From a virus: DNA of 46,874 nucleotides. The translations under genes were made by a program, and so were the position numbers. The stretch is taken from the IMG/VR virus record IMGVR_UViG_3300035181_001974; one strand, given 5' to 3'. The notes beneath the pieces were generated by a model, which ran no database searches, was not told the origin of the DNA, and saw nothing but the letters and a program-made list of their open reading frames with translations. Shown here in pieces: positions 8,133 through 46,736 of this stretch. Numbering within the stretch: position 1 is the first letter of the stretch; every line of letters begins with the position of its first letter.

Positions 8133-8474
8133 TTAGGCGCTGCCATTCGACCACTCGCCTTCCAACTTGCGATACTCGATCGGGTGACCGAGCTCCTGGG
8201 CATGAGCGATGCCGTACTCCATGCCCTTACTCATGCCGAGGTCAGTGTACACGACAGTCTTATCTGAGGCCTCACGCCATGCAAAGCCAGCGGCGATGCC
8301 GTGCATTCGCTCGTCAGTGACGTCATCGCGGAGGACGCCTTCCTGAGTGTACAGTGCGTGGCTCGCGTATGGACTCTCACCTCTCGCTAGACAGTCACGC
8401 ATGCAGGCCCTGACGTACCGCATGTTCTTGTCAATGTCGCCAGCATAGGGCGACTCGATGATGACGCGGATCAT
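8133..8474 (-). CDS. DUF4406 / nucleoside 2-deoxyribosyltransferase-like fold protein (start placed at MIRVII, not the track's 8645)
   Basis: RVIIESPYAGD...CLARGESPYASH...VVYTDLGMSKGMEYGIAHAQELGHPI matches the DUF4406 pattern (KLYLAGPMRG...RARGHEVFSP...GWENSRGA..E). The truncated start avoids overlap with 8492..10399. Confidence 0.4.
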   Translation of the reverse strand: MIRVIIESPYAGDIDKNMRYVRACMRDCLARGESPYASHALYTQEGVLRDDVTDERMHGIAAGFAWREASDKTVVYTDLGMSKGMEYGIAHAQELGHPIEYRKLEGEWSNGSA

Positions 8475-8491
8475 CTTGGGAAAAGGCTTTC

Positions 8492-20617: not shown

Positions 20618-20621
20618 TCAC

Positions 20622-23081: not shown

Positions 23082-26000
23082 TCAAGACTTTTAAGGTAGC
23101 GAATGACACGGCGATCAAGACGGGATTGGTTCAAATTCAGCCCGCTCAGCCCGCTCGTGCCAACAGCAATAGCGGCACGTCGACCAACAACACGAAGCCG
23201 CCTCCGAATCAAGTTCCTCTTGCCGGCGTCTCAGCGGTCATTGCTGCGCCCGCGGCCTCGAGTCAGACCACGTCGCTCAAGTCAATCGTCAACCCGACGC
23301 TATCATCGTTGGCCAGCTCGATCACAGCTAAGAACTTTATTCTGCCCACCATCGGCGGCGGAGCATCAAAGCTTATCCCAAGTTTTCACATCGATATTGA
23401 CCCGTCCGTGGTCCTGCCATCCTCGTCAGACGCTCTGGCGGTGACGACCAAGAAGTTCGAGCCTTACGAGCTGCAGACAGGCATTTCACAGGAACGGCCC
23501 GAGGTCGTCATGATGACGAACTTCCTGCCGCTTTACAAAAAGACGATCTCGACTGCCAACAACAGCATCTTGCGGTACACGTTGGCCGGCCAGCGTCCGC
23601 AGACTACAGACGCTGGAGAGTTCTTCAATACGCAAGTTGACGTTCGTAGCCTCCGCGTGCATCAGGTCAAACATTTGTTGACTCAGGTCAAGCGTCGTTA
23701 CATGTACCTACGTGCGCAGACCGCTGATCGATCTTCGGCAATGTCACAGGCTTTGAGTGAACTCGAGTCGCTTTCTCTGTACCTCTGGACAGTCATGCGG
23801 ACGCTAGAGAAGTTGAAGCAACAACTAGATCTCCGTGATGACGTTCACATTGTCGATCCACACGAGACGTTGAGGCTTCATCTCAGCACCTTTAGTTCAG
23901 TACGAGCCTTGAGCCTATTGAACTTCTTGACCCCAGCACTGACAACATACTTCCCGCCACAGTATGATGTGCCTCATGCTCTGACATTGTACGGCTACAC
24001 TGAGGAAAACGCTAAGCACACGTATACCTCGAGCAAACTGTGGATGCAGTTGATGCTGGAGTACAAGCACGTCCTGCAGACGCACTCCTTGAACATGCTG
24101 GACATCGATCCTGCACCGCAGCGGAATGATTCATCACCCGTTGCTATCACTCAGACGCCGTCAATCAAGCGCTTCGACTACACCGCGGTCCTCCCAACGC
24201 TGCCAAGCCTCGACTCAATCACGCAGATGCAGCCGCCGCAGATCCCGCAGTACGTCAACTCTCTAATTTCGAGCTACAACACAATTTATCAAGGCGTGTC
24301 GTTCAAGCACCGTGAGATGCAACTGGCATGCTTGATCAATGCCCTGTCGCGGGAGCACAGGTATTCTTTGGGTCTGTCGAAGCCCGAGGTTCAGAAATCA
24401 TTGCAGAGCTACTACGGTTATCAGGTCAGCCCGCAAGGCAATCTGCAGATGTTCGATCGGGTGGTCGGACAGTTTGGTAGCAACATCACAGACTTTCCGG
24501 CACTTCAGTCCAAGACGCTAGCCTCTCTTGCGCAGCAACAAGTTGCACAAAATGTGGCGGTGTTGCCTTTTGAGTCGCGGTACGTGGAAGGTGACACCGG
24601 CACGTTGACCCCGGGCAGCAGCTACTATGTCGATTCTGTATTGCTTACACATGGGAATCGCTATGATGTGACTAGGTTGATTGAGTTTCGTGATGTACTG
24701 CAGAACGCACTGACGAACTTCAATGTCATCGTCGACGGTCTTGATCTACTGCAGTCTGAGTACGTCGATCAGTACTCCAACAGCGCAGGCAAGTTTGCGT
24801 CGCTGATCGCAAATCCTCGTTCGTTGTTTGATGAGATTCGCGCTGAGATGATGACGTCGGATGCGGTGGGCTTGACGCCTGAAATCGCAAATGATCCACT
24901 GCTACCATTGTTTACAGTCGCTCAGTCAGACACTCGACTACGTTCACTGCTGTTGCTCTACGTGGTCACCAAGATGTCGAAAGCTTACCTTCACAACGTA
25001 GAGTTCTTCGATGCGGCGCTTGATCAGGACAACACTCCCACATCTGATGCCTTGGTCGATCTGATCGTGAAGCAGCTCATCTCTGCAACCAAGCAGACGT
25101 CTACGACCTTGTTGGGAACAACGAATCAGAGCCACGCCGCCCGCAAGCCCACGTCGGGAAAGGATCAGCGTACTGTCAACATTGAGACCGTCAGGACTGC
25201 GTTGAAGACGGGCAGTGGCCACTTCTTGGCTGCCGTGATCTCGATGATGGGTCGCCTGTTGGCAACGTTCAAGAGGAACAATGCAGTCTTCAATGGTTCG
25301 GTCACGAGGTACGGCGGTCACCCTGATACCGTCATCTTTATGTCGATCGTTGACATCTTCACGTCATTCATCGACCTCTATGGCGATCGTCACGTGGTGG
25401 GTCAGCACATTGACCAAGGCCAGACGCAATTGATCATTGATGCACGTCACGTGAGTCACACGAACTCAGTCCTGGAGGTCGATCAACGCTTGGGTCGCGA
25501 GATCATGTTGTCAGAGACGTGCAGCTTCACCGTCATGAATAGCTTGACGAAGTTGATTAATTCTGTTAACAATGTCATCAACTATCTGAACGGTCCTGAG
25601 TCGCTGGCGGAATTGCAGAAGGTCACTGGGCTACTTAGTGACCCCAGCATGTTGCATATGTTGCTGAGCGAGCAACAGATCAGGTTGCTGTCGAGTAACG
25701 TTGCTGACCTTAGGTCTGCGTTGGCGGGTCACTCGAGGACGGGCAACGAACCTGGCGACATCAACGGTGACGGTGAATTTGACTCAGACGATGAATTGAT
25801 CGCCCTCGATGATGCTGAGATCACTCCCAAGATCAGACGGGCGATCGACGACATGTTGTCGACTGATGAGTTCACGCAGGCATCAGCAGCCTCGAGAAAG
25901 ATCTTGACTGTCGGAATCCCACTAGGCTTCTCCAGACACCTGCAGCAGAAGGTCGACATCAAGAAGTTGAAGAAGACCTCGTTTGATGTCCGCCAGAACG

Positions 26001-27112
26001 ACGTGGTGAATATCGCCGTCTACAAGGTCGACATGCAGAATCCCGACATTGTCTATAAACCGCAGCGGTTCATGTTTGAGCTGTCACGGTTTCCTGTCAG
26101 GAATGATGTCTATGTCAAAGACAGTCCGGGAGTGTCCAAGTTCGACATTGTCTCAAGATTCCCGACACGAGACGCCAGCCAGGCATTTTCATCGGGCGGC
26201 AGTGTGCAGTACATTCGTAGTTCTGACAACGAGGTTGAGGCGTTGGACGGCGAAGACTATGACTTCTTGACGCGCCAAGAGAAGGATCAACTCTACGTCA
26301 ATCACGTGTTCAGTTATTTGTTGGAGGTTTACCTGCGGACAATGACTGGCATTTCGACCGCTGATTATCACTTCGACATGGTCGATCCACCGCCGCAGGT
26401 GGAGTCCGACTTCGTCAACCTGTTGCTCAACCACTACGTCAATCACGTTTCAGCGATCAAACAACAGGGACTCGATGGAATCAACCGCAGTGGAATCTTT
26501 TTCGGCTCGACCCAGGGTGCATCGAAGGGTTCTGCCAAAGGCGGGTTCGTGTCTCGGGCTGCGGGAGGAGGCACACAGAGGTACCTAGCAAATTCTGCGG
26601 GAATTGCCGGGCTGTCTACTACTGTCGCATTGTCAGGATTTTCTGACTTGACGCCCAACGTGAGGTCATCTGAAAACACGTTGTTGTCGTCGACAGACAC
26701 GGTGCTGGCGGGCCTGCCGGAGTCTGACGCTCCGCTGCTGGTGAACTCTTTCGGTGTTCTGAATGAGTTTTCGCGGATGACCACGCCTCTTGCAGACCCT
26801 CTGGCAATTTCGCAGCGCATCATCAATCCGAAACAGTTCGATCGAGTGTTCAACCTCTTGGTCGATCCTTATTCGTTCGAGATTGACGTGTCAAAGACGC
26901 AGGCCACACCCCATGGGAAGCAGGCGCTGGAACTGATGATCAAGCAAGGCGAAATTGAGCCCACGGCTTCTATGACTAGTCTCAGGTTGGGAAACGCCAG
27001 CCTCAGACCGGAACTGACGTATGTCCAGCGGCGCCGCGATAACGCAGAGGGCGACTTGATCTTCGAGAAGTACATTGTCTCTGTCGAGACAGTTGGAGAG
27101 GACCAGGCCTGA
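23078..27112 (+). CDS. very large virion structural protein (1344 aa; candidate baseplate/tail or tape-measure-like component)
   Basis: ATGA coupling with GAGGA Shine-Dalgarno. Ser/Thr/Ala-rich N-terminus. Confidence 0.5.
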   Translation: MIKTFKVANDTAIKTGLVQIQPAQPARANSNSGTSTNNTKPPPNQVPLAGVSAVIAAPAASSQTTSLKSIVNPTLSSLASSITAKNFILPTIGGGASKLIPSFHIDIDPSVVLPSSSDALAVTTKKFEPYELQTGISQERPEVVMMTNFLPLYKKTISTANNSILRYTLAGQRPQTTDAGEFFNTQVDVRSLRVHQVKHLLTQVKRRYMYLRAQTADRSSAMSQALSELESLSLYLWTVMRTLEKLKQQLDLRDDVHIVDPHETLRLHLSTFSSVRALSLLNFLTPALTTYFPPQYDVPHALTLYGYTEENAKHTYTSSKLWMQLMLEYKHVLQTHSLNMLDIDPAPQRNDSSPVAITQTPSIKRFDYTAVLPTLPSLDSITQMQPPQIPQYVNSLISSYNTIYQGVSFKHREMQLACLINALSREHRYSLGLSKPEVQKSLQSYYGYQVSPQGNLQMFDRVVGQFGSNITDFPALQSKTLASLAQQQVAQNVAVLPFESRYVEGDTGTLTPGSSYYVDSVLLTHGNRYDVTRLIEFRDVLQNALTNFNVIVDGLDLLQSEYVDQYSNSAGKFASLIANPRSLFDEIRAEMMTSDAVGLTPEIANDPLLPLFTVAQSDTRLRSLLLLYVVTKMSKAYLHNVEFFDAALDQDNTPTSDALVDLIVKQLISATKQTSTTLLGTTNQSHAARKPTSGKDQRTVNIETVRTALKTGSGHFLAAVISMMGRLLATFKRNNAVFNGSVTRYGGHPDTVIFMSIVDIFTSFIDLYGDRHVVGQHIDQGQTQLIIDARHVSHTNSVLEVDQRLGREIMLSETCSFTVMNSLTKLINSVNNVINYLNGPESLAELQKVTGLLSDPSMLHMLLSEQQIRLLSSNVADLRSALAGHSRTGNEPGDINGDGEFDSDDELIALDDAEITPKIRRAIDDMLSTDEFTQASAASRKILTVGIPLGFSRHLQQKVDIKKLKKTSFDVRQNDVVNIAVYKVDMQNPDIVYKPQRFMFELSRFPVRNDVYVKDSPGVSKFDIVSRFPTRDASQAFSSGGSVQYIRSSDNEVEALDGEDYDFLTRQEKDQLYVNHVFSYLLEVYLRTMTGISTADYHFDMVDPPPQVESDFVNLLLNHYVNHVSAIKQQGLDGINRSGIFFGSTQGASKGSAKGGFVSRAAGGGTQRYLANSAGIAGLSTTVALSGFSDLTPNVRSSENTLLSSTDTVLAGLPESDAPLLVNSFGVLNEFSRMTTPLADPLAISQRIINPKQFDRVFNLLVDPYSFEIDVSKTQATPHGKQALELMIKQGEIEPTASMTSLRLGNASLRPELTYVQRRRDNAEGDLIFEKYIVSVETVGEDQA

Positions 27113-29019
27113 TGTCAGTTTCGTTGCCTTCAAAGGAAATCTACACAGTTGACGTTCCTGAGGTCAAAAACTTCAAGGCAACGTTTCACTACAATTTCTT
27201 CACTCCTGACGAGCAGGTCAAGGAGAGTAGTGGCATTCCACAGCTTGAATTGCAGCGCATTGCAGATGACAGCGTGGACGCATTCAATTCACAATACTTG
27301 ACGACGCGGGTCCCGCGATACGTGGCATTCAGTTGGAACAAGCCGAGGCTTCAGGCGCCTGGCGGACAACTTATCGAGAGTGATGTCCGAAAACACAGTC
27401 AGCGCCCGCCGACGCTGCCCAGGCTGATTGCTGACAATCTTGACAAAATCGTTGACGAGGATCACTTCTCGTCATACAACTATCTGGCTGTCACGTTTCA
27501 CGATGGTTCGATTGACGACAAGGTCTACAACTTTGTCTCGGGCAGCTATGAACAGTTGACTCTCGAGACGCCGAAGGACCCTGGCCTCAGCGTTCACAAG
27601 GCCTCGTTGGCCCTACAACGTCAAGTGCCCAGCAGGATCAATCCTCACTTCATCTCACGGGCCATGATCCAGCCGCACAGTGCGTTCGGAGCCCGACACT
27701 ATGACGCCGCTGGCGGCGTCACAATGCATACTATTCCAGGTGCTCAGGTTCTCTATCGGCAGTACTTCAATCGTCTGAAGCACGTCTACCTGCACTCGCA
27801 GATCAATTCGAAGTTGTTCCATGACGTAACCAACCGCGTCATCAAGGACCCACACTCACCTTTCCCATTGGATGCAGGATCGTTGCACTTTGTCAGTCGC
27901 AAGCTCGGCAACTCTGTCAAGAAGCGCCTTAACTTGACGATCAATGACGAGGAGTTCAAGGTCATCGTCCCGTACGTTAACCTTCGTGTCGACCCAACGT
28001 CGCACCACGTGCAGCGCATGAACGCTGAACTGGTAGGCTTCATTATTGACAAGTACGAGATTGCTGACGACGGGTCAGTCAAGCAACTTCAACCCATCAT
28101 CGTTGAGCACCCCGAGGTGCACAGGGCGCTGGACGTGGCCGTCAAGTACAATCAGCAGTACTCGTACACGATCAGGACGATTGCGCTGTTCCACCTTCCG
28201 GCCATTGATCATGATACGGGTGATATTGCCACGATTCAAGTACTGGTGTCGTCGAAGCCTTCTAACAAGGTTGACATCAAGATCGTTGATGACACAGCAC
28301 CACCGCCACCGTCTGACATCAACTTCGTCTGGAACTATGAGACCGAGAAGTTGATGATGCACTGGGCATTCCCACCCAATTCGCAGCGTGACGTCAAGAG
28401 GTTTCAAGTTTTCCGCCGTGTGACGACAGATCAACCCTTTGAGTTGTTGAAGGAATACGACTTCGATGATTCTGCAGTCAGGGCTGACGATCACGAGCGA
28501 CCTGAGCCACACCTCGTTGAACACCTGACTTCACCGTGTAGGTTCTATGTTGACGATGACTTCACTAAGTCTTCGAAGTACATCTACACCGTCTGTTGCA
28601 TTGACGCTCACGGTCTAACCTCGTGCTATGGAGCACAGTTTCAGCTGTCGTTCGATGTCTTCAAAAACCAGTTGGTGAAGTCGCTGATTTCTCACGCTGG
28701 TGCTCCCAAGCCTTATCCGAACCTCTATCTGGAAGGAGAAGGCTTTGTCAACGTGGCTCGTGTTTCAGGTCCTCACTCTAAAACACTGCGTTTGTTCTTC
28801 AACCCTGAGTACTACATCCTTGAGGATGATCAGGAACGTGCACATCGGATCTTGTCGACCAAGCAGACACATGGATCATACGTCTTTCAATTCATCAATG
28901 CTGACAATCAGAAGAGTCAAAAACTGACTGTCGCCATCGATGACCGCGTTAGGGCGGCGCAGCCCAAACTGACGTTCCCCAAGTTCGTCTTCAACGTGCC
29001 TAAGCAAGTCAAGGGATGA
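27112..29019 (+). CDS. virion structural protein (635 aa)
   Basis: TGATG coupling with GAGAGGA Shine-Dalgarno. Confidence 0.5.
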   Translation: MSVSLPSKEIYTVDVPEVKNFKATFHYNFFTPDEQVKESSGIPQLELQRIADDSVDAFNSQYLTTRVPRYVAFSWNKPRLQAPGGQLIESDVRKHSQRPPTLPRLIADNLDKIVDEDHFSSYNYLAVTFHDGSIDDKVYNFVSGSYEQLTLETPKDPGLSVHKASLALQRQVPSRINPHFISRAMIQPHSAFGARHYDAAGGVTMHTIPGAQVLYRQYFNRLKHVYLHSQINSKLFHDVTNRVIKDPHSPFPLDAGSLHFVSRKLGNSVKKRLNLTINDEEFKVIVPYVNLRVDPTSHHVQRMNAELVGFIIDKYEIADDGSVKQLQPIIVEHPEVHRALDVAVKYNQQYSYTIRTIALFHLPAIDHDTGDIATIQVLVSSKPSNKVDIKIVDDTAPPPPSDINFVWNYETEKLMMHWAFPPNSQRDVKRFQVFRRVTTDQPFELLKEYDFDDSAVRADDHERPEPHLVEHLTSPCRFYVDDDFTKSSKYIYTVCCIDAHGLTSCYGAQFQLSFDVFKNQLVKSLISHAGAPKPYPNLYLEGEGFVNVARVSGPHSKTLRLFFNPEYYILEDDQERAHRILSTKQTHGSYVFQFINADNQKSQKLTVAIDDRVRAAQPKLTFPKFVFNVPKQVKG

Positions 29020-29106
29020 TCGTTTACGGACGCACTGTGAAAAGTAGGATTCAGATGTCGATGGGCAGTTTCTCGCCATAGAGCAATACGTAAAGGCTAG
29101 ATCACC

Positions 29107-29292
29107 ATGATCGTGTATGAGGTTCGCAATGTTCTGAACGGGACTGCGCTAACTACTTACGCTTCAATGAAAGAAGCTGCACAAGCCGTTAACGGTCACA
29201 AGGATCGCACTGGTGATTGTTGCCGAGGTATACGAGAATCACACGCTGGCTATTTCTGGCGTTACGCAGAAGAACAAAAAGAGGCACGGTGA
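29107..29292 (+). CDS. small NUMOD1-like DNA-binding domain protein (homing-endonuclease-associated module, free-standing)
   Basis: IVYEVRNVLNGTALTTYASMKEAAQAVNGHKDRTGDCCRGIRESHAGYFWRY follows the NUMOD1 pattern: vYvyd.nG..i..f.S..eAAk..g.....I..c..g.r...gGy.w.y. Confidence 0.45.
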   Translation: MIVYEVRNVLNGTALTTYASMKEAAQAVNGHKDRTGDCCRGIRESHAGYFWRYAEEQKEAR

Positions 29293-29295
29293 CGC

Positions 29296-30012
29296 ATGGG
29301 GTTCCTTGATCATTCAACTAACAATATCATCCTCGACGCTGTGCTAACTGACGTAGGGCGCCAGTTCCTGGCCCGCAATGACGGCAGCTTTTCACTACAC
29401 AAGTTTGCTCTTGGTGACGATGAGGTAAACTATGGGATCATCTCGAAGTATGGTCGTACCGTTGGCCGTGAAAAGATCGAGAAGAACACGCCGATCTTCG
29501 AGGCGTTGACTAATCAGCAACACTCGCAGAAGTTCAAGTTGATCAGCGTCTCAAACCCCAACCTGTTGAGGCTGCCTGCGTTGAGCCTGTCTGGCGATGC
29601 TAACGTTGACGGTCTGAATGCTGTGGTGACCCTGGGTCGTAATCAGCAGAAGACGTCGACCATGACGTTGGAACAGGTCATCAAGAACGAGACTTCGATC
29701 GACGTTGAACTCCGCGACCAAACGTTCATCATTGAGGTGCCGAACCTCTTCTGCCAGGTCCTCCGCAACACGCCTGAAAATGTCGACGGCCAGCAGCGTG
29801 CGACCTACATCCTCACCCGTTCACCGACTGAGAACGCATATGGCGGGTCGAGCGTCCAGTTCACCCTCTCGGTCAAGTCACTGACCGACGCCTTGTTCTC
29901 GGTCTACGGCAGCACGGCCAACAAGTCGAAGATCAAGACCTACATCAAGATCACAGGCGTCCAGTCAGGTGCCGTCAAGGACATCACCGTCATCATCGAC
30001 AAGAATCTGTGA
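29296..30012 (+). CDS. virion structural protein (238 aa)
   Basis: AAGAGG Shine-Dalgarno. Confidence 0.45.
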   Translation: MGFLDHSTNNIILDAVLTDVGRQFLARNDGSFSLHKFALGDDEVNYGIISKYGRTVGREKIEKNTPIFEALTNQQHSQKFKLISVSNPNLLRLPALSLSGDANVDGLNAVVTLGRNQQKTSTMTLEQVIKNETSIDVELRDQTFIIEVPNLFCQVLRNTPENVDGQQRATYILTRSPTENAYGGSSVQFTLSVKSLTDALFSVYGSTANKSKIKTYIKITGVQSGAVKDITVIIDKNL

Positions 30013-30029
30013 TCGGAGCCCACTGACCC

Positions 30030-31298
30030 ATGGCAATTTTCAAGGAAATCCTTCCGAGCGACATCAAGACGGCACGCTCATTTCTGAACCAGCTCATCGA
30101 CGTCCTTCAGGAGGACATCAGCGGTTCAGTTTCGCGGCGCAAGTACCAGGTCTTCGTCACTGGCGGCATTGGTCCTGGCGTGACCAGCTCGCTGTTTCAG
30201 ACCGTCTATGATCAGGACTTCAGTCTGCAGACAGCGAACCCGATCTTCGACATGACGCTGGGAATCTTGCCTGGCGGCACCACGGCACGGTCGAGCCAGT
30301 TGGGCACCGACGCAGCGGGTAAGGAACTGTTCCCATCATCTTCACTGATGATGCGTGAAAAGTTGGACGTCTATCGTCAGTTCTCGCAAGCTTTGTTGGG
30401 TGATTCGACACAGACGTTCAAGGCGCCCTTTGATTCGACTGGCGTGTCGGACTCGATGGACGTGGCGTTGTTCATCGCCTTCAAGCGTTTGTTTGCACGC
30501 GATCAGATCAAACGTGAGACGATGGCGATGCGGTTCTATCAGTCGGCCTCGTTCGTCGCGGTCGGTCCTAATGGCTCCAGCATTGACGTGCCACCGCAGC
30601 TCAATGGCTACGGCGATAATCCGGGCGTCACTAATCTCAATGTCACCTCGACCTCAGGGTCAGCGATTTACACCGACATCGGTGCGTCGACCAACAAGTT
30701 GACGGCGTTTGGCGGTCAGGTCGGTAATATTGTCGATTCTGCAAACACCAATCGGTCAGTCGGCCTGATGTTCTACGACCGTGGCATCATGGTCCTTGAC
30801 ATGGCCAAGATCACGTCTGGCTCACAGTTCATGTCGGGCGTCATCGACGCAATGCACCCGTTGGGTAGGATCACACTGGGTGACCCGCACACCGAGACGG
30901 GCCGGCAGGCCAACTTTGCCGAGAAGTTCATTCCTGACTTTGTCGTCTCTGCGTCGATCGATAACATCGTCGACCACATCGCCGCGTGTCGATTTGGTTC
31001 TGGCTCACAGTCAGCAATCACGTTCCAAAACGTGACGAATATCAACAGCACTTTGATCTTCTGCCGCGCCGGCGCCGACGAGTTCAACTACTCGTCCAAC
31101 CCGACGTTCACTGACGCTGACAATCGAATCGTCGTCATTGACCCGGGTCAGGAAGACACGCAGCAGACGTTCACCTTCATCACTTCAGTTGGTCTCTACG
31201 ATGCCAACGATAACCTGTTGGCGGTGGCTAAGCTGTCGAGGCCGGTGGAGAAGTCGCCTGAGAGGGATCTCACGCTCCGTGTCAGACTTGACTTCTAG
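30030..31298 (+). CDS. virion structural protein (422 aa); C-terminal about 35 aa paralogous to the end of 31536..34043
   Basis: C-terminus GLYDANDNLLAVAKLSRPVEKSPERDLTLRVRLDF. Confidence 0.5.
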   Translation: MAIFKEILPSDIKTARSFLNQLIDVLQEDISGSVSRRKYQVFVTGGIGPGVTSSLFQTVYDQDFSLQTANPIFDMTLGILPGGTTARSSQLGTDAAGKELFPSSSLMMREKLDVYRQFSQALLGDSTQTFKAPFDSTGVSDSMDVALFIAFKRLFARDQIKRETMAMRFYQSASFVAVGPNGSSIDVPPQLNGYGDNPGVTNLNVTSTSGSAIYTDIGASTNKLTAFGGQVGNIVDSANTNRSVGLMFYDRGIMVLDMAKITSGSQFMSGVIDAMHPLGRITLGDPHTETGRQANFAEKFIPDFVVSASIDNIVDHIAACRFGSGSQSAITFQNVTNINSTLIFCRAGADEFNYSSNPTFTDADNRIVVIDPGQEDTQQTFTFITSVGLYDANDNLLAVAKLSRPVEKSPERDLTLRVRLDF

Positions 31299-31347
31299 GA
31301 TGATTCTCGACTGGTAAGCAGTCAAACAGAAAGTTGTACGATTTGGC

Positions 31348-31488
31348 ATGCGTTATCAATACACATGCCAAACGTGTTTAAAGCCCTTCGAGTCTTACAA
31401 GAAGGACAAGAAGTTCTGTTCAGTCAAATGTTCCACGGCACGACATGGCCAGGTGACCAACCAGTGTGTCATCTGCAACATCTGACGG
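31348..31488 (+). CDS. small zinc-ribbon-like ORF (46 aa; not in the track)
   Basis: Hand translation: MRYQYTCQTCLKPFESYKKDKKFCSVKCSTARHGQVTNQCVICNI. Three Cys pairs (CxxC, CxxxC, CxxC). An inverted repeat TTGGCATG...CATGCCAA (31343-31371) spans its start codon. Confidence 0.3.
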
Positions 31489-31535
31489 ACTGAGGCCCCC
31501 GATGCAACGGGGTATAGTTATGATGAGGAGCAGGA

Positions 31536-34043
31536 ATGTCACTCACCCCCGTTAGCCAGAACGACCTAGAGTCGTTCAGCGTCATCGCCAATCCGATTAG
31601 GCAATATTCCTCGTCGTCGATGGGCGTGACTGGGTCAGTTCACGTTTTTGCTCGACGGTCGTCGATCGAAAAAGACGTCACCTCCCTACCCGGGTTCGTT
31701 GATGCGACGAAAGACGATTCTGACCTCAACGCAACCATCGGTCAGTTGACGATGCTGGGGCGTCTGGCTAAGTACGTCAGTACCATCGCAGAGAAGTTTC
31801 CTGGGATGCTGGATGACTACTTGTCCAAGGTCGACAGCCAGGCGATCTCAGCGCGTAAGCAGAAGATTCTCGACATCATCAGGTTCACGCCTTCCGTCAA
31901 CTTCAGCTCAAACACCACGAGGAAGTTGATCGTCAAGGACATCTTGATGAAATACTACAGGACGTCGTACCCGTCGGCGCACTGGGCCTACTCCAACTAC
32001 AACTCCCTGAACTTCTTCACCGCATCTTCTGTTCCGACGAGTTCAGTGCTGTTGTATCCGAACTACGATGTCTCTATGAGCGACCAGGCTCACGAGGGTT
32101 ACGTGGCGCTCAATTACTCATTGAGTGGTTCATTCTCGTTCGATTTCTACATCAATCCACGTTACCAGACAGAGGAGCCCAATGGCCAGTTCAAGGCTGG
32201 CACCATCATGCACGTTTCATCGTGCTATGCCTTGTCGTTGGTCACTGGCTCAGCGAAGGACCAAAATGGTCGGCCTCTTGGCTATCGTCTATTGCTCCAG
32301 TTGAGCCATAGCGCAGACACGCGGCCGTCAGAGGCATTGCCAGGAAATTATCCGAACGATCTTGTGTTCTTGTCTGACGATAACTCGTTGCAGTGGAATC
32401 GCTGGCACCACGTGGTGGTTCGCTGGGGCACGAGTCTCATCAACCAAGGAACTGGCAGCTTCAACATTGACGGCGTTGACAAGGGGTTGTTCGTCATTCC
32501 AAGCGGCACAGTGGCGCCCTTGTTGTTTGGCGACCCTGCCCAGGGCATGCCATCGGTTCTGTGCGTTGGCAACTATTGGGAGGGGACCAACAAAGGCAAC
32601 AATGAGCAATCATTGTTCTTTGCGGCAGATCCGGCCCTCCGTGAGGGTCTGACGCAACTCAATGGCACGGTTGGAATCGACGCGCCAATCTCAGCTGCGG
32701 TAGCCTTCAATCACCCGTTGAATGCTGAACTTCATGACGTGGCGCTCAAGCGCTTCTACATGAGCAACGATGACATCGTGTTTTCTGCGTCTCAGGGGCC
32801 CAAGTTGCTCGACTGGAACCTGGTCGCCTTCTATTTGCCTCCGTTCTTCATTCAGGAATCGCCCTTCAGGCAGTTCGTCGGCACTCACGGTGGCATCATG
32901 CAGACGCCCTTCTTTGAGGTCGACGGCACCACGCAGTCACCGTTCAACGTGGCCATGTCGTTCGGCGTCAATGGTCACTACATCAACATTGAAAATTACC
33001 TGCGTGACTTTGCGAGCGACGTCTTCCCTCGGGCTCACGATCTGTCGGCGTCGGTCATTGACTACACCACAGAGGCTCGAGCCGCCAACGATTTTCTGTA
33101 CGATGATCCCAAGGTCCGTGCTAGGAACTTGCTGATCCTGCCGTGCGACGATGGCAACTTTATCCCTGCCTATGAACTGTTGGCGAGCGAGAGCCTTAGG
33201 ACCATCATGGTCGGTGACGACGGGGTCGAAGAACTGAGCTACGTTCACCTAGGCAACATGCTGTCTACTGCCTCCATCTTGTTTGGCAGCGCCTTTGAAG
33301 ACGTGGAGGGTGTGGCGGCCGCAGATGCCGATAGGTTCATTGACGAGTTGATCGGGTTCACGCCAGAGCAACCGGGTAATCAGCCTGGCCGAGCCTACGT
33401 TGGGTTCATGCGTAAGCTAACTCAATCAGTGGCATCGGGCACTTACATTCCGGGCGTTGAAAACAATGCCCCGCTGACGATCTACCAACGTACTCGTGAT
33501 CCCTCATCCAACCAGGTGACATTCTTTGACGTCAGTAATCTGTACTATGGCCAAAGAATTATGCCTGGCACCCTTGAGCTCTACGAGAGCGGCATGACTG
33601 GCTCAAATGGCCGTGTGCCGATGACCCTGAAGGACGACGGCAACGGTAACATCTATCGCGCCGACACCTTCACCTCAGCATCCACATGGAACTCTGTGGG
33701 CAACGTCTTCTACGACGAGGGAATCATTGTCATCAAGAACCCGCACCTCTACTTCTACGGAAAGGATCACTTCGAGGTCTCGTTTAGAGGTGTCCAGTCG
33801 ATTCACTCGCTAAAGCTAGAGGTGATTGCGGCCCAAAATCAGCTCAACTCAAGTTCCAACCCGAACTTCAAGCTGCTACCTGCCTCGGGCTTCAAGACTG
33901 ACAACGATCCCAATTACGTCTACATCACTGGCCTCAATTTTCATGACGAGAACTTGAACGTGGTGGCGAAGACCCAACTCGCTCAGCCCATCGTCAAGCG
34001 CCACGGGGATCGGATTCTTTTCAAAGTCGGGATCGACTTTTGA
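31536..34043 (+). CDS. large virion structural protein (835 aa); shares its C-terminal motif with 30030..31298
   Basis: GAGGAG Shine-Dalgarno at 6 nt. C-terminus GLNFHDENLNVVAKTQLAQPIVKRHGDRILFKVGIDF. Confidence 0.5.
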   Translation: MSLTPVSQNDLESFSVIANPIRQYSSSSMGVTGSVHVFARRSSIEKDVTSLPGFVDATKDDSDLNATIGQLTMLGRLAKYVSTIAEKFPGMLDDYLSKVDSQAISARKQKILDIIRFTPSVNFSSNTTRKLIVKDILMKYYRTSYPSAHWAYSNYNSLNFFTASSVPTSSVLLYPNYDVSMSDQAHEGYVALNYSLSGSFSFDFYINPRYQTEEPNGQFKAGTIMHVSSCYALSLVTGSAKDQNGRPLGYRLLLQLSHSADTRPSEALPGNYPNDLVFLSDDNSLQWNRWHHVVVRWGTSLINQGTGSFNIDGVDKGLFVIPSGTVAPLLFGDPAQGMPSVLCVGNYWEGTNKGNNEQSLFFAADPALREGLTQLNGTVGIDAPISAAVAFNHPLNAELHDVALKRFYMSNDDIVFSASQGPKLLDWNLVAFYLPPFFIQESPFRQFVGTHGGIMQTPFFEVDGTTQSPFNVAMSFGVNGHYINIENYLRDFASDVFPRAHDLSASVIDYTTEARAANDFLYDDPKVRARNLLILPCDDGNFIPAYELLASESLRTIMVGDDGVEELSYVHLGNMLSTASILFGSAFEDVEGVAAADADRFIDELIGFTPEQPGNQPGRAYVGFMRKLTQSVASGTYIPGVENNAPLTIYQRTRDPSSNQVTFFDVSNLYYGQRIMPGTLELYESGMTGSNGRVPMTLKDDGNGNIYRADTFTSASTWNSVGNVFYDEGIIVIKNPHLYFYGKDHFEVSFRGVQSIHSLKLEVIAAQNQLNSSSNPNFKLLPASGFKTDNDPNYVYITGLNFHDENLNVVAKTQLAQPIVKRHGDRILFKVGIDF

Positions 34044-39783: not shown

Positions 39784-40167
39784 ATGGCAGACGTGAAAAT
39801 CGACTTCAATGCCTTGGGTCAGGCAATCGACACCTCATGGGGCCGTTCATCAACGCCCAATACGGCAGGTTACTCTGTGAAGTTTACCCTGCACGGTAAT
39901 CGCATCATCGCCTCTTACGCCGCAGTTGTCAACTTTGGCACGGAGAAGGAAATGATCCTGATGAAGAGGCGTTACTCTGAGGAGTCGCAAGCCATCATCA
40001 GCGCCGTCATGAAGAAGGTGAAGGCCACGTACAAGGAACTCGCTGGCAAGGCCCTGAAGACTTCTGAGGGAGCCTCCGATGATTCAGTCGAGGTCATCAA
40101 CTTCGGCATTCACAATCCAAAGCGCACTGCTTATTACCGCCGCAAGACAGTGTTTGAGCTCAGCTGA
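39784..40167 (+). CDS. hypothetical protein; candidate small terminase subunit by position
   Basis: AGGAG Shine-Dalgarno at 9 nt. Its stop overlaps the start of the large terminase (TGATG). No sequence-level identification. Confidence 0.35.
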   Translation: MADVKIDFNALGQAIDTSWGRSSTPNTAGYSVKFTLHGNRIIASYAAVVNFGTEKEMILMKRRYSEESQAIISAVMKKVKATYKELAGKALKTSEGASDDSVEVINFGIHNPKRTAYYRRKTVFELS

Positions 40168-41795
40168 TGTCAATTGCCACGTCCAACGGTCCGCTCGGTA
40201 GAGAAGAACAGGTCCGCGAGATTCTGAAGTGCGGCAAAAACGCCGTCTACTTCATGAAGAACTATGCGAAGATCCAGCACCCCAAGAGGGGCCTGATCCC
40301 GTTCGACACCTACTACTTTCAGGATGACTGCATCAAGGCATTTGAAGAGAATCGCTTCAACATCGTCCTGAAGTCACGTCAGCTGGGCCTGTCAACCGTC
40401 ACCGCGGCCTACGCCGTCTGGTACGCGATCTTCAAGAAGGACAAGAACGTCCTGGTCATCGCTACCAAGTTGCAGACCGCCATGAACTTCATCAAGAAGG
40501 TGAAGACAATCCTTGACGGCCTGCCCAAGTGGTTGCTCCTCACCAAGTTCGAATCGACCAAGCAACAGATCACGTTTGCCAATGGGTCAGTCATCGCGGC
40601 CGTACCGACCTCACCAGACGCTGGTCGTTCGGAGGCCTTGTCACTTCTCATCGTCGATGAGGCCGCATTCATCAGAGACTTTGAAGAGATCTGGACCGGT
40701 CTCTATCCGACTATCTCCACGGGCGGTTCTGCGATCATTATTTCCACGCCTAACGGCGTCGGCGGCATGTACTACAAGTTGTGGACCGACGCAATAGCAC
40801 AGGTCAATGAGTTCAACACTATCAATCTTCCATGGCACGTTCATCCCGAGCACGATCAGGCATGGTTTGACAAGGAAACCAAGAACCTGCCAAAGCGAAA
40901 AGTTGCCCAGGAGTTCCTTTGCGACTTCATCTCGTCAGGTGACACATTCCTGCAACCCACGGAGATGGACTATCTCAGGAGCATGATCGACAGTCCGATT
41001 CGCAAAGAAGGACCGCAGAATGCTGTCTGGATCTGGTCTGATCCTGAGCCGGGCAAGAAGTATGTTATTTCATCTGACGTGGCCCGTGGAGACGCTGCCG
41101 ACTATTCGACGATGCACGTCATTGACGTAAATGATTGTGAAGTCGTCGCAGAATACATGGGCAAGATTCCGCCTGACAAGTTGGCCGACCTTCTAGCTGA
41201 CTACGGCAAGAAGTATAACACTGCCTTGCTGTGCCCAGAGCGTAACAATTTTGGCTACATGACGGCTGTCAGACTCAGAGACATCGGCTACAAGCGTCTG
41301 TATTATCGCAATATGACAGGCGACATGTTCGAGTACATCTCGAGCGACCCAGAGGCAATTCCTGGCTTTGAGACGCAAGGTAACACTCGTCCGCAGATCC
41401 TGGCGAAGCTCGAGGAGATCATCCGCAACAAGATTGTCAAAATCTACTCGCAACGCTTCTACGATCAGATGCAGGCCTTCATCTGGCAGGGGTCCAAGGC
41501 TCAGGCCACCCGTGACAGTCATGACGACTTGATTATGAGTCTAGCGATTGGCATTTGGCTGACCAACGGCGGTTCAGGAGTCAATGAACAGGCTCATGAG
41601 ATGGCGATGGCCATGTTGAAGGCCACGCAGGTCGCGCGCAGGGACTCAGCGCAGATGCCAGGTGACATTCAGTCAGCACAGCCGCTGATCAATCCTAACA
41701 TCAGGGGCGTTAATCCTTACAACGTTCACAAGCCCCGCGATCCATCGCAGATCAAGAATGCTGACGTGAGCGATTTTAGCTGGTTGCTACGGTGA
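40167..41795 (+). CDS. terminase large subunit, T4 gp17-like
   Basis: VLKSRQLGLSTVTAAYAVWYA...LLIVDEAAFI...IISTPNG is collinear with T4 gp17 SRQLGKTTVVAIFLA...IYIEDCAFI...IITTTPNG. Lambda-type deviant Walker A with an N-terminal Lys (KSRQLGLS). Confidence 0.9.
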   Translation: MSIATSNGPLGREEQVREILKCGKNAVYFMKNYAKIQHPKRGLIPFDTYYFQDDCIKAFEENRFNIVLKSRQLGLSTVTAAYAVWYAIFKKDKNVLVIATKLQTAMNFIKKVKTILDGLPKWLLLTKFESTKQQITFANGSVIAAVPTSPDAGRSEALSLLIVDEAAFIRDFEEIWTGLYPTISTGGSAIIISTPNGVGGMYYKLWTDAIAQVNEFNTINLPWHVHPEHDQAWFDKETKNLPKRKVAQEFLCDFISSGDTFLQPTEMDYLRSMIDSPIRKEGPQNAVWIWSDPEPGKKYVISSDVARGDAADYSTMHVIDVNDCEVVAEYMGKIPPDKLADLLADYGKKYNTALLCPERNNFGYMTAVRLRDIGYKRLYYRNMTGDMFEYISSDPEAIPGFETQGNTRPQILAKLEEIIRNKIVKIYSQRFYDQMQAFIWQGSKAQATRDSHDDLIMSLAIGIWLTNGGSGVNEQAHEMAMAMLKATQVARRDSAQMPGDIQSAQPLINPNIRGVNPYNVHKPRDPSQIKNADVSDFSWLLR

Positions 41796-42224: not shown

Positions 42225-45200
42225 ATGGCAAAAAAAGAAGCACCTCAAAGCCTTTTCCGACGACTGACGCGACTGTTTCGAAGTGGTCCTGTCATCAAGA
42301 AGAAGATCCGCACCGCCGACACGACGATCGCGGTCGCTGACAAGACTAAGTCGTCAGGCACGTTGCTCTTTCAGAAGTCGCTGGCGCCGACCTACGCGAC
42401 CATCACGGCAAATGCCTACAACCTGAGCGAGCGCTTGATGCGCTATCAGGACTTTCAAGAAATGGAGTATTCACTTGCGATTGACACTAAGATCGCAACC
42501 TCAGATGGTTTCAAGACTATAGGTGAGCTAGCGCAAGAGTGTGAGAAAAATCCGGATCACATCTTCATTGTCTATTCGTACGATCACAATTTGAAGCGCA
42601 TCGTTCCGGCGTTCGGTAAACAGGCTCGTCAGACCTGTGTCGATAGTGCCTGGAAGATCAAATTTGATAATGGAAAAGAGATTGTTGCATCACCGGAACA
42701 TCGACTGATGCTTCGTGACGGTACATACCGTCGTGTTGAGGACCTGAAACCCGGCGATGCAATGATGCCCTTCTACCGCAAAGACATCTTTGCTGATGCC
42801 AAAGAAGGCACCCTTGGCTACTCGTGGATCTACACGATGGACGATAGGTTCCGCGGTTGGACCAAAGAGCACCAACTGATCGCTGAGTGGGTTGCCGGTC
42901 GTCAGCTCAACGAAGATGAGGTTGTCCACCACATCAACTTCATTAAGACTGATAATCGTCCTGAAAATCTCAGGATCATGACGAAGTCTGCCCATGACAG
43001 TTACCACGCCGCGATCAACAACGGGGTGAAGTGGGCACCCGAAAACCGTGAGTGGATCGAAGAGTTCAAGAAGAACCATGCAGCTCGGATGCGTGACAAT
43101 GCTCCTGGCGCTCGCAGGGATGTGACTTTTGCTCGAATCCTAGAGACTGCTGAACGTGTTGGTTTCAGCATGCCGGCGATTGCAAATGCTCTTGATGTCA
43201 CATGGAACCTGATCTATGAACGATTGGCGACCCACGGATTCTCAACGTTCAATAAATTTGTTGCGGCATATGCTGGCGGTCAAGCTGATTCTATGATCAA
43301 CAACCGACCCGGTCTACTGACACGGGACTTGAGCCTCGAGCTATTGAAGTCTTCGATGACTGCTGGTGACACGAAGCGTTCTTTGTGCATTAAGCTCGGT
43401 TGCACTGTCAACGTACTTGACAAGTTTTTGGCCCGCCGCGCCCGGATGTCGTGGACAGAGTTGCGTTCAACAATGGGGTATCACGACGAGGAAGTGACCG
43501 TCAATCAGATTAAGAGCGTCCGAAAGGGCGGTCGTCCACGAGGTTCGAACGGTAATTCACTGACGTTCCAACAGATCTGTGATGCATATACACCCAGCGT
43601 GACGTTGCCTCGTCTCGCCGAAAAGCTTGGCGCCAACAAGAACACGATTATCTCCAGGTTGTCGCAGAATGGCTTCAAGAAGTTTAGTGACTTTCAGGAG
43701 ACTTACAACAACTGTAAGGTAGTTTCCGTTGAGTATGTCGGTGAGATCCCTCTCTACGACCTCACCGTTGACGGGTACAAGAACTTTGCCACCGATAGTG
43801 TGATCTCGCACAATACTCCTGAGATCGCGGCTGCTCTTGACATCTATGCCGACGAAACGTGTGCACAGGATGAGAAAGGCCGCGTCCTCCACATTTACTC
43901 GGACAATGAGAAGATTCGCGAGGTGCTCGAGGACCTTTTCTACAATACGTTGAACACCGAGTTCAACCTGCGATCCTGGGCGCGCAATCTTGTTAAGTAC
44001 GGCGACTTCTTCCTCTATAATGACGTTTCTCCAACGTACGGAGTCGTCTCAGCGTTCCCGATCCCTGTCAACGAGATCGAGCGCGAAGAGAACTACGATC
44101 GTGACGATCCGTTTGCGGTCAGGTATCGCTGGGTCACCCTAGGTAATCGAGTCCTCGAGAACTGGGAGATCACTCACTTTCGGCTCTTGGGCAACGACAT
44201 GTTCTTGCCTTACGGGTCATCGATCATTGAGCCTGCCCGCCGCATTTGGCGTCAGTTGATCCTCATCGAAGATGCAATGTTGGTGTACCGCGTCGTCAGG
44301 GCACCTGAACGCCGCGTCTTCTACATCGACGTTGCCAACGTTCCAGCGCAGGACGTGCCTCTTTATGTTGAAGAGCAGAGGAAGAACCTCAGGACGAATC
44401 AGGTCATTGATCGCTCTTCTGGTCGTGTGGACCTCAGGTACAATCCACTGTGCTTCGCAGCGAACGTTCAGATACCATTGTTGGATGGTAGGATGCTGCG
44501 GATCGATGAGCTAGTCAAGGAGTGGAATGAAGGGCGCCGAGACCATGAGACTTATTCCCTTGATCTCGAAGCGGGGGGTAGGTTGGTACCCGGCAAGGTG
44601 ATCTGGGCCGGGAAGTCAGGTACTACGAAACAGTTTGTCAGGGTGACGCTGGACGACGGCGGCGTCATCAATGTCACACCTGAACATAGGATGATGCTTC
44701 GTGATGGTTCTCACGTTAAAGCGAAGGATCTACGTTCGGGCGACAGCTTGATGCCGTTGCACGTTACATATGCACCGATGTCAGGCGCTGAAGTTTCTGA
44801 AGTTGACAAGCACTGTTACGAAAAGGTGCTCGATCCATCGTTCGGAACACGCATCTTTACCCACGAGTTGATCGCGGCTCATGCGTTCGGGCTCGAGGTC
44901 TATCGGAACGGGCACATCTCACAGCAGGGAAAGACAATTCATCACGTCAACTTTGACAAGCTCAACAACTCAACTGGCAACCTGCAGTTGATAACGAACG
45001 CTGAGCATTACGTCAAACGTTCTGAAGCGATGTCTACGATGTGGGCTGACCCTGAACGAAGGGAGCGTGCCCGACAGAACATGCGCTATGTTTGGTCGCC
45101 TGAGTGCCAGGTCTACGTTATCAACGTCATCAGATCGCTTCGTAGGTTCGAGGGGCTCGATGCGTTCCTGAGACGGTTGAAGTCCGACGTAACGTTCATG

Positions 45201-46736
45201 AAGCTCTACGCAGCAACGAACGCTCATCTGGCTCACGATCTCGCGAAATCGCTGCATAAAAACGTCGTCGGTAAGTTCATCATCGCCGATTACCTTAACT
45301 GGAAGGCAGTTTGGGCTGCGCACCATCCTGCGGCCTTGGGTCGTCAGTACGTCAACAACGTTGACACCGGCGTTGTTGCTTCTGACGGTGCGAACAACCA
45401 CGTCGTCATTTCTGTTGAGCTCATCGATACAACTGAAGATGTGTACAGTGTTACCGTTGATCGATGGCACAATCTTGCCGTGGGTGGTGAAAATGCTGCG
45501 AAAGGTGCACAATCACCTCATGGTGGTGGTGGTGGTGTAGGACTAATATTTGCGTTTCAGAGCGTCGATGAGGACTACTTCATCCCAGTTCGTGGCCAAG
45601 AGTCTGGAACTCGCATTGAAACCCTCGCGGGAGGCCAGAACACTGCCGCCGTCGAGGACGTGGCCTACATTCAGAAGAAGCTGTTTGCTGCTCTGAAGAT
45701 CCCACGCGCCTACTTGGGTTACGATGAGATGCTTAGCAGCAAGGCCACGTTGGCGCAGGAGGACATCAGGTTCTCGCGTACCATTGCTGTCATTCAGAAG
45801 ACGATCCTTGCCGAGCTCAACAAGCTGGCGATCATCCACCTCTATGCACACGGGTATGACGGTGATGATCTGCAGAACTTTACGTTGCATCTGTCCAACC
45901 CGTCGACTGTCGCACAGCAACAGAAGCTAGAACTGTGGCGTGCCAAGTTTGAGATCGGCGGCTCGGCCCCTGAAGGCTTCATTGATAAGGACTTTGTCCG
46001 CAAGGAGATCTGGGGCCTCAACGATCAGGAGTGCAAGCAGATCGACAAGAATCGCATGAAAGATAAGGTCGTTGACGCAGCCATCGAGTCCGGCGCGGGT
46101 GCTGGAGGGGATGGCGGCGGGGGAGGCGAAGACCTCTTTGGCGGCGGCGATGAAGGTGGAGGCGGTGAGGAACCCGCAGGCGGAGAAGAGACGCCTCCCG
46201 AGGAAAACGCAGGTGAGGAACCAGAAGAGGAGACCACGCCTGGTGTTCAGCTCCTGACGTCAGCTGACGACAATGATGACGATGAGACATTTGGGCTCCG
46301 CGTCGGCGCCATGAAGGACGTCGAGATTCCAGTCAAGGCTCAGAAGCAGCTTGACCGCGTGCTCTACAACCGTAGCCGTCACTTGACGCACGGACCGTCT
46401 AAGACGCACATGCCTGACTTCAGGAAGATGACTTCGACTGACAATCGAGCGATGGAGGATCCTTACGATACCGACTTCTTGAAGTCTGTCGTCAGCGACC
46501 CATTCGGCGAAAGCGTCGCACGTCAGCAGCGGCTTCCTGGCGACGTGGTCGCTGCGTTGCTAAGTTGGGAAAAGAAGTTCCCTGGTGAGCGCGGATCGAA
46601 GAATGGTTTGATAAAAGAGGACCAAGAGATCAACATCGAGATTGATGAGTCGATCGAACCGGGTCTGACAGGCAGCGCCATTAACGAAGGCGATGTACTT
46701 ATCATCGATGATGACAACGAGGATGACGAGTCATGA
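42225..46736 (+). CDS. portal protein, T4 gp20-like, interrupted by two HNH-containing inteins (precursor 1503 aa; mature about 685 aa)
   Basis: Extein [44 protein letters not shown] aligns with T4 gp20 [55 protein letters not shown] aligns with [22 protein letters not shown]. Acidic, Gly-rich C-terminus. Confidence 0.85.
   Translation: [1503 protein letters not shown]
42471..43814 (+). mobile_element. intein 1 (448 aa, Ser1 ... His-Asn, +1 Thr) with an HNH homing-endonuclease domain
   Basis: Block A [43 protein letters not shown]..H. Block G [20 protein letters not shown] followed by T. Confidence 0.75.
44451..45560 (+). mobile_element. intein 2 (about 370 aa, Cys1) with an HNH domain, paralogous to intein 1; non-canonical C-terminal junction
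   Basis: Block A [43 protein letters not shown]. Block G-like [16 protein letters not shown] is followed by a 24-residue Gly-rich extension ...[13 protein letters not shown] before the extein Ser. The 3' boundary is inferred from alignment to T4 gp20. Confidence 0.55.

Follow-up and report, generated by a model that had tools for sequence, protein, structure and literature searches.

The portal gene of an uncultured virus, IMG/VR record IMGVR_UViG_3300035181_001974, raises the question of whether an intein that lacks the canonical His-Asn ending can still leave its host protein and, if so, where that intein ends. The 46,874 nt of DNA analysed here are referred to, at their full length, as the window. 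An earlier, sequence-only reading described a T4 gp20-type portal gene interrupted by two inteins, each with an HNH motif, the second of which (intein 2) did not end in the expected residues where similarity to gp20 resumes; splicing through a terminal Gln, retention of a Gly-rich segment in the mature portal and a degenerate junction were offered as explanations. The results favour the first of these: intein 2 is likely to be a class 1 intein of a site-specific lineage, which would complete splicing through cyclisation of its terminal Gln, with its junction intact and the Gly-rich stretch excised as part of it.

Splice junctions defined by intein-less relatives

A single unbroken open reading frame (ORF) encodes the 1503-residue precursor (Table 1). 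In its unspliced form, this is matched by the Pfam family Portal_T4 in two pieces, by Intein_splicing twice and by HNH_3 twice, and by a portal family and many HNH endonuclease families in PHROGs, bearing out the description of two HNH-bearing inteins in a gp20-type portal. Once both inteins are removed, Portal_T4 (PF07230) aligns to the 685-residue product as a single stretch spanning positions 4-431 of the 433 in the profile (241 bits, E = 2.5e-71), and phmmer matches the product to the T4 gp20 structures 3JA7 and 6UZC (E about 1e-24). Each excised segment, taken alone, matches Intein_splicing (PF14890; Table 1). These profile matches, of the spliced product and of the excised segments alike, are far beyond chance. 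The gene product is thus the precursor of a gp20-type portal, from a large phage that is uncultured, and two mobile inteins must leave this precursor to give the 685-residue portal.

Searching with the spliced extein sequence returned thousands of portals, roughly 8000 of them from this clade of phages. The best 120 of these are 82-91% identical over the query and, with the exception of P0167, have no intein domain; many intein-less relatives are found on contigs of 100-370 kb. Four intein-less portals (P0121, P0092, P0122 and P0078) were aligned to the precursor, to which they are 79-81% identical in the alignment and about 90% identical over the extein. They run ...QEMEY/TPEIAAALD... and ...RVDLRYNPL/SVDEDYFIPVRG... 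(here and below, a slash within a sequence marks the splice junction), with zero residues between the flanks. Both inteins are in-frame insertions that close orthologues lack, each followed at once by renewed similarity to the host protein, and the comparison fixes the insertion sites to the residue; the coordinates previously given to the two inteins proved to be exact. The last residue of intein 2 is Gln1112 and its +1 residue Ser1113. The +1 residues, Thr531 and Ser1113, are nucleophiles, as is expected for class 1 inteins, and both are kept in the four aligned intein-less alleles. Site 2, between Leu742 and Ser1113, corresponds to M328/S329 of T4 gp20 in the phmmer alignment to the solved structures. 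The spliced junction peptides are predicted to be QEMEY-TPEIAAALDIYADETCAQDEK and VDLRYNPL-SVDEDYFIPVR.

These alleles also settle the affiliation of the Gly-rich stretch. Intein-less portals read through site 2 as RYNPLSVDEDYF, from which the segment is absent; because they have no residues between RYNPL and SVDEDYF, the stretch is intein rather than extein.

The C-terminal junction of intein 2

The DNA at the end of intein 2 reads TTT CAG/AGC, encoding FQ/S, and the junction is indeed non-canonical, as the sequence-only reading had noted. A sequencing slip is an unlikely cause, because a change from Asn to Gln takes two base changes and the identical protein is present on five contigs. Intein 2 has the Cys1 nucleophile and the block B motif TPEH, and lacks both the His at G:6 and the Asn at G:7 of a canonical block G. 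Instead, Gln occupies G:7, directly before the +1 nucleophile and where the final strand of the Hint fold ends, which is the arrangement of a Gln-terminated class 1 intein. Intein 1 has Ser1, a block B SPEH (Ser for Thr), a block F LYDLTVDGYKNFATD with Asp at F:4, and a block G SVISHN followed by Thr+1. The earlier description of its SHN/T ending as fully canonical agrees with this, and by its residues intein 1 is a canonical class 1 intein predicted to follow the standard four-step pathway (Ser1...His-Asn/Thr). Neither element has the residues of class 3, since Cys1 is combined with Ser at F:4 in intein 2, and Ser1 with Asp at F:4 in intein 1.

In the block alignment, the FQ of intein 2 falls in the columns occupied by HN or KN in other inteins, and GLIFAFQ lies in register with SFIYLHN, GIFVKN and SVISHN. 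The segment WHNLAVGG, which had been taken for a block G, is instead the end of block F, aligning with ...HNF[AV]... of canonical relatives and with DGYKNFATD of intein 1; the true block G is GLIFAFQ. Between the two blocks, most site-2 inteins have a loop of variable length and sequence (for example, HNFAAGPALHLHNEDMVAKSLIFIHN/S in P0072 and HNFAVCGLKPSTDGLTNIVQVDGIIIKN/S in P0009), while a few, such as P0003, have none. In intein 2 the five Gly residues of this loop are encoded by a perfect (GGT)5, and it is at this Gly run that the loop exceeds that of its closest homologue, in P0218, by four residues, suggesting that the repeat slipped in frame within a loop that tolerates such change. The expansion of the F-G loop accounts for the Pfam intein profile aligning to only 147 of its 155 positions.

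An AlphaFold2 model based on a 73-sequence alignment covers intein 2 together with 10 flanking residues of the extein. Its mean predicted local distance difference test score (pLDDT) is 77.8 and its predicted template modelling score 0.74. The N-terminal half of the Hint domain and the block F region mostly score above 90, the F-G loop is at about 58, and prediction is poor for the helices that follow the HNH core. The last strand of the model (model residues 375-379) is LIFAF, directly before the Gln, in a 10-residue block with a pLDDT of about 83. The Gly-rich stretch of about 19 residues is modelled as a surface loop between the last two intein strands, and would leave with the intein. When the model was compared with the PDB by Foldseek, inteins ranked best (6rpp, 2imz, 1zd7, 4kl5 and 2lcj, the last being the Pab PolII intein that ends in Gln), and the inteins matched include PabCDC21-1, Mtu RecA, Ssp DnaB, DnaE and PI-PfuI. 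The intein 2 segment is in this way assigned a Hint fold, on which its identification as an intein had been made to depend.

Conservation of the glutamine ending

Relatives of intein 2 were sought in several collections. An exhaustive search by HMMER covered 1.84 billion cluster representatives and found 3659 matches, the best of which are very long multi-intein portals. A word-indexed protein search with intein 2 found distant relatives only (at most 30% identity at full coverage) and no member of the clade described below, which came to light only through HMMER; the proteins of that clade are all longer than 1000 residues, and every match from the word-indexed search is of 718 residues or fewer. 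A scan of IMG/VR with the single intein sequence likewise found nothing close, and a scan with the clade alignment did recover loci; ten loci were confirmed in the metagenome scan.

A neighbour-joining tree was constructed from the N-terminal 115 and C-terminal 75 residues of 64 site-2 inteins. In it, intein 2 groups with P0218, P0219, P0220, P0221, P0222, P0226 and P0241 in one clade, all members of which start with Cys1 and end in Phe-Gln or Trp-Gln before Ser. The clade is separate from those of the type Cys1...[H/K/R]N and from a large clade with Pro1 and Cys at F:4, which resembles class 3. The seven relatives represent separate 50%-identity clusters, all at the same portal site, and their junctions read VGFVFCFQ/SVDEDYF in P0218, GIIFAWQ/S in P0220, GKVVSFQ/S in P0221, GMLFTFQ/S in P0222, and GKVQSFQ/S in P0219, P0226 and P0241. 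Their identity to intein 2 is 32-47% by full-length BLASTP, or 38-56% over aligned columns. Invariant throughout the clade are, among others, Cys1, the Thr and His of block B, the block F Thr, the Asn-Leu of HNL, a Gly before the last strand, the Gln at G:7 and Ser+1. The intein of P0222, at 277 residues, has lost its HNH domain, and it too keeps these ends, including TFQ/S. Further members occur on IMG/VR and JGI/metagenome contigs, ending in FQ (L007, L051/L090 and L087) or YQ (L008-L010). Persistence of the ending at such divergence, and after loss of the endonuclease, is the pattern expected from selection for a functional junction and not from decay. Together with the LIFAF strand of the Hint model, this conservation at one site is what favours splicing through a terminal Gln among the explanations originally offered.

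Other inteins occupy the same portal site. Canonical ones end in HN/S (P0234, P0272 and P0223) or KN/S (P0003 and P0253), and share with intein 2 the site RYNP[LM]/S[VT][DE]EDY, Cys1, an IPLLDGR block A, block B, usually an F-G loop, and HNH_3. They differ in having an Asn end, mostly Cys at F:4 (TGCITV) and HNF, where the clade of intein 2 has a Gln end, Asn or Ser at F:4 and HNL, and the two groups form separate branches. The combination of Pro1 and Cys at F:4 (DVYCMTV) is found at this site in P0001, P0009, P0232, P0228 and others, and at loci L022 and L033; this is the signature of class 3 inteins, of the mycobacteriophage Bethlehem DnaB and D. radiodurans Snf2 type, and is not that of intein 2. 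Some of the class-3-like inteins also have Gln termini, namely P0225 and P0228 (GQ), P0295 and L033 (KQ), and L022/L089 (FQ). P0225, P0228 and P0295 lie on separate branches of the tree, and replacement of Asn by Gln seems to have arisen more than once at this site. Judged by their sequences, intein 2 and its relatives form a coherent sub-lineage of the already known class 1 inteins with a C-terminal Gln, here with no penultimate His.

Predicted splicing pathway and comparison with known inteins

The Thr-x-x-His of block B assists the first acyl shift in inteins. In the pathway proposed for intein 2, Cys1 would form a thioester, aided by the block B Thr and His, and the N-extein would then be handed to the hydroxyl of Ser+1. 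In the third step Gln1112 would cyclise to a glutarimide and cut the Gln/Ser bond; as there is no His at G:6, the block F His (His1082, in WHNL) perhaps helps at this point. An O-to-N acyl shift would finally link ...RYNPL to SVDEDYF....

Both departures from the canonical ending have precedents. Where Asn is missing from G:7, some inteins rely instead on a Gln or Asp that cyclises and thereby cleaves the C-terminal junction; His is absent from G:6 in about 5% of functional inteins (PMC4031507). Experiments have shown splicing via Gln cyclisation for the Pab and Mma PolII inteins, which are slow, and for the ribonucleotide reductase (RNR) intein of Chilo iridescent virus (CIV), in which the native Gln supports better splicing than Asn does (PMC4031507). 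Since both deviations are documented in functional inteins, the missing His-Asn does not exclude intein 2 from this group.

The inteins of Pab (Pyrococcus abyssi), P. horikoshii and Mma (Methanoculleus marisnigri) PolII and of CIV RNR (RIR1) resemble intein 2 in their Hint fold, Cys1, block B TxxH and Gln at G:7. The Pab PolII intein, whose structure is among the Foldseek matches, further shares Ser at F:4 but keeps the penultimate His (PMC8175363), whereas G:6 is Phe in intein 2 and Trp or Tyr in some of its relatives. There are differences too in the host, which is a phage portal rather than an archaeal polymerase or viral RNR, in the +1 residue, which is Ser and not the Cys of the known Gln-ended inteins, and in architecture, as intein 2 carries an HNH endonuclease and an expanded F-G loop while the PolII inteins are mini-inteins. 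Intein 2 has no detectable orthology to the PolII and RNR inteins, and its likeness to them is convergent.

Alternative explanations

Several observations weigh against splicing through the terminal Gln. The His usual for the third step is absent from intein 2, in which G:6 is aromatic, and the candidate helper, the His of block F, varies within the clade (P0241 has RFANL). The neighbour-joining tree has no support values, and splicing of intein 2 and its clade is a prediction from sequence, fold and precedent. In addition, intein 2 departs from its own clade: it alone has Ser in place of Asn at F:4, its F-G loop is the longest, and its endonuclease linker is about 50 residues shorter than those of six of the seven relatives, with the gap right after the HNH core (about 45000-45030, after ...NAEHY). 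These three features make some decay of intein 2 possible. The linker segments that are missing are of the types NIIKYNxSxxKRxKTSExN and MYNGTELHxxHN, which resemble DNA-binding repeats of the NUMOD3 type, and the homing endonuclease may be in partial decay, although both ends required for splicing remain intact.

The alternative that survives best is that decay has reached the junction itself. Intein 2 would then have been damaged by a change from HN to FQ and would splice poorly or not at all, leaving a defective or marginal portal allele. The missing His-Asn fits such damage, as does a Ser at F:4 where the clade has Asn and canonical inteins Asp, and so do the deletion in the linker and the F-G loop lengthened by (GGT)5; even the known Gln-ended PolII inteins are slow (PMC4031507). 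It is nevertheless an unlikely explanation. The aromatic-Gln ending is fixed across the clade at the BLASTP identities given above and kept in the mini-intein P0222, as purifying selection predicts, and this conservation is at odds with the degenerate junction that had been entertained earlier. Cys1, the block B TxxH and Ser+1 are all intact; and the portal is an essential, single-copy gene whose identical precursor occurs on five contigs (three of them of 0.2-1 Mb) as an ORF unbroken over 4.5 kb.

A stronger form of the proposed terminal-Gln splicing is that the aromatic-Gln end, Asn or Ser at F:4, HNL and a long F-G loop together mark out a subclass of phage inteins with a mechanism of its own, in which slow or conditional C-terminal cleavage has been selected at this portal site. 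This is doubtful, but if it were true, the rate of splicing, rather than being neutral, could set the timing of portal maturation and prohead initiation or act as a gate on them.

It is most improbable that intein 2 ends earlier, at ...KGAQ/SPHGG or near WHNLAVGG, with the Gly-rich segment and GLIFAFQ staying in the portal as a lineage-specific insertion: the AQ/S at residues 1099-1101 does supply a Gln followed by a Ser nucleophile, and the Intein_splicing match does stop near HNLA, but more than 100 intein-less relatives are without the segment, and without GLIFAFQ, which aligns with canonical block G and closes the Hint domain as its last strand in the model, the intein would be incomplete. 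The AQ/S junction itself was rejected, as it is found in no other member of the clade.

Origin of the inteins and their accumulation in portal genes

The HNH domains of both inteins are predicted to be homing endonucleases, encoded in frame and accompanied by helical modules for DNA binding. Intein 1 has the motif VVHHINF...NL...H from residue 233, with the core VVHHINFIKTDNRPENLRIMTKSAH, and its HNH_3 (PF13392) match, in which the HH...N...H motif is present, scores 40.1 bits against a curated cut-off of 24.8; intein 2 has TIHHVNF...NL...H from residue 904, and its lower score (Table 1) is still above that cut-off. The HNH motifs quoted in the sequence-only reading, TPEHRMMLRDG and SPEHRLMLRDG, belong instead to block B of the Hint domain. 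By eye, intein 1 also has three tandem helix-turn-helix-like repeats, TFARILETAERVGFSMPAIANALDVTWNLIYERLATHGFSTFNKF, LCIKLGCTVNVLDKFLARR and TLPRLAEKLGANKNTIISRLSQNGFKKFSDF, at about 43110-43730 (residues about 296-500), between the HNH core and block F; these are probably a DNA-binding module of the endonuclease.

The shared HNH_3 domain, the very similar block B regions and an identity of 29% over the N-terminal 206 residues (E = 9e-17) would fit the duplication or intragenic homing of one element suggested earlier, but a recent event of this kind within the gene has next to no probability. Intein 1 is closer to inteins at its own site in four other phages (P0227 at 73%, P0219 at 63%, P0351 at 54% and P0224 at 50%) than to intein 2. 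Full-length identity of intein 2 to P0218-P0221 is in turn 46-48%, and it is no more similar to its neighbour (28.6%) than to foreign site-1 inteins (28-35%); the C-terminal halves of the two have no detectable similarity, and P0219 has both lineages at the same two sites. The site-1 homologues in P0227, P0219, P0351 and P0224 (FQEMEY/...SHN/TPEI) start with Ser or Cys, and a fifth, in the truncated P0257, is 36% identical to intein 1. Inteins 1 and 2 are, on this evidence, old site-specific lineages of one broad HNH-intein family rather than recent intragenic products. At third codon positions their G+C content is 0.57-0.58, lower than that of the three extein segments (0.66-0.68) and of the terminase gene (0.69), as would fit elements that move horizontally.

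The number of insertions of at least 120 residues was counted in 140 portal-like HMMER hits, a sample picked by intein similarity and so biased towards carriers. One such insertion is present in 37 of these, two in 58, three in 27, four in 6 and five in 2, giving at least two in 93 of the 140; the suggestion that two inteins in a portal gene is rare does not hold in this sample. In this clade of large uncultured phages it is common for a portal to hold several inteins. The precursors P0225 (2818 residues), P0230 (2930 residues) and P0223 (2383 residues), all of gp20 type, have four or five large insertions each, and P0219 has a third intein besides those of the site-1 and site-2 lineages. An automated junction caller placed the insertions at no fewer than 12 recurrent non-allelic sites, at extein residues of about 71/77, 82, 93, 96, 141, 217, 230, 294, 319/321, 352/353 and 358. 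The same caller marked candidate Gln or Asp termini at portal sites other than site 2, such as the one near extein residue 77. A third site, ...ALDIY[ADET]/C..., 10-14 residues downstream of site 1, holds other inteins in P0221 and in P0167 (807 residues, 86% extein identity).

Inteins are also carried by the portals of actinobacteriophages (Kelley et al. 2016, PMC5050341; Gosselin et al. 2025, 10.1101/2025.01.02.630785), among which in-frame HNH inteins are a rare architecture (10.1101/2025.01.02.630785). Those surveys concern a different portal family (IPR009279 is cited) and mostly LAGLIDADG endonucleases. Glutamine termini are not mentioned in the Gosselin et al. preprint, in which the word 'glutamine' does not occur.

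Genomic setting of the portal gene

A T4-type large terminase gene (Terminase_6N; 40167-41795) lies directly upstream of the portal gene, and a Peptidase_S77 prohead protease is encoded downstream of the identical portal gene on contig L005. Terminase, portal and prohead protease is the expected order of a head module, and with the full-length profile match identifies the gene as a T4 gp20-type portal. Among the five contigs with the identical 1503-residue precursor are the three of 0.2-1 Mb, so the allele has been assembled repeatedly and is part of a very large phage genome. A megablast search with the portal gene found no match among 50,697 phage records; the nearest portals from cultured phages, those of Microcystis phage Mel-JY01 and Flavobacterium phage immuto, have 41-44% protein identity.

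After the portal core there is a low-complexity tail rich in Gly and Glu, GGDGGGGGEDLFGGGDEGGGGEEPAGGEETPPEENAGEEPEEE (46090-46260, residues about 1290-1345), which is of variable length and present in all close relatives. Three ORFs antisense to the portal gene, at 44970-45512, 42690-43079 and 45543-45920 on the minus strand (180, 129 and 125 residues), have no significant match in Pfam. They were considered as antisense endonucleases and rejected for want of a significant family match, and are probably spurious.

Elsewhere in the window, at least six glycosyltransferase genes and a polysaccharide-biosynthesis epimerase/dehydratase gene at 511-10399 on the minus strand are unusual cargo near a phage head module. 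On the plus strand, a fusion of a PIN domain to a PhoH-like ATPase is encoded at 18104-19489 (PIN_4, E = 3e-32; PhoH, E = 1e-47), followed at 19499-34043 by large ORFs of 372, 831, 1344, 635, 422 and 835 residues that have no Pfam match at E ≤ 0.001. A helicase and an SbcC-like ATPase are also encoded in the window.

Table 1. Coordinates in the window of the portal gene, its extein segments and the parts of its two inteins; residues (aa) are numbered along the precursor
Feature	Coordinates	Strand	Residues	Details and basis
Portal precursor ORF, T4 gp20-type with two inteins	42225..46736	+	1503 aa	Stop codon included in coordinates
N-extein	42225..42470	+	aa 1-82	Ends ...QEMEY; alignment to intein-less P0121, P0092, P0122, P0078
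Intein 1	42471..43814	+	aa 83-530 (448 aa)	SLAIDTK...VISHN/TPEI; Intein_splicing E = 3e-15, HNH_3 E = 2.8e-10
HNH_3 endonuclease core of intein 1	42870..42995	+	aa 216-257	Pfam
Middle extein	43815..44450	+	aa 531-742	TPEIAA...RYNPL; alignment to intein-less portals
Intein 2	44451..45560	+	aa 743-1112 (370 aa)	CFAANVQ...GLIFAFQ/SVDEDYF; Intein_splicing E = 1.5e-13 (profile 1-147 of 155), HNH_3 26.8 bits
Block B of intein 2, TPEH	44676..44687	+		Thr B:7 and His B:10, invariant in clade; middle residues vary (P/S, D/E/S)
HNH_3 core of intein 2	44907..45008	+	aa 895-928	TIHHVNFDKLNNSTGNLQLITNAEH; Pfam
Block F of intein 2	45438..45482	+		DVYSVTVDRWHNLAV; F:4 = Ser, HNL His retained; aligns with ...VY[DCN].T....HNF.. 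of canonical relatives
F-G variable loop of intein 2	45483..45539	+		GGENAAKGAQSPHGGGGGV; (GGT)5 at 45522-45536; pLDDT about 58
Block G of intein 2, GLIFAFQ	45540..45560	+		Phe G:6, Gln G:7; last beta-strand; aligns with SFIYLHN and GIFVKN
C-extein	45561..46733	+	aa 1113-1503	From Ser+1, SVDEDYFIPVRG...; intein-less alignment; matches T4 gp20 from S329 on

Implications

The apparent anomaly at the end of intein 2 is resolved by its membership of a conserved Gln-terminated lineage, to which its junction belongs without being broken. If splicing does proceed as predicted, the clade would provide a natural and presumably mesophilic series of inteins of the form Cys1...[F/W/Y]-Gln/Ser, spanning 32-47% identity, in which to study the third step of splicing without the G:6 His; slow C-terminal cleavage is a property exploited by intein-based purification tags. 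The frequency of multi-intein portals also bears on the mis-sizing of such genes by gene callers. More generally, the gp20-type portal of this clade is a hot spot for inteins, and this bears on how homing elements build up in the essential genes of phages.

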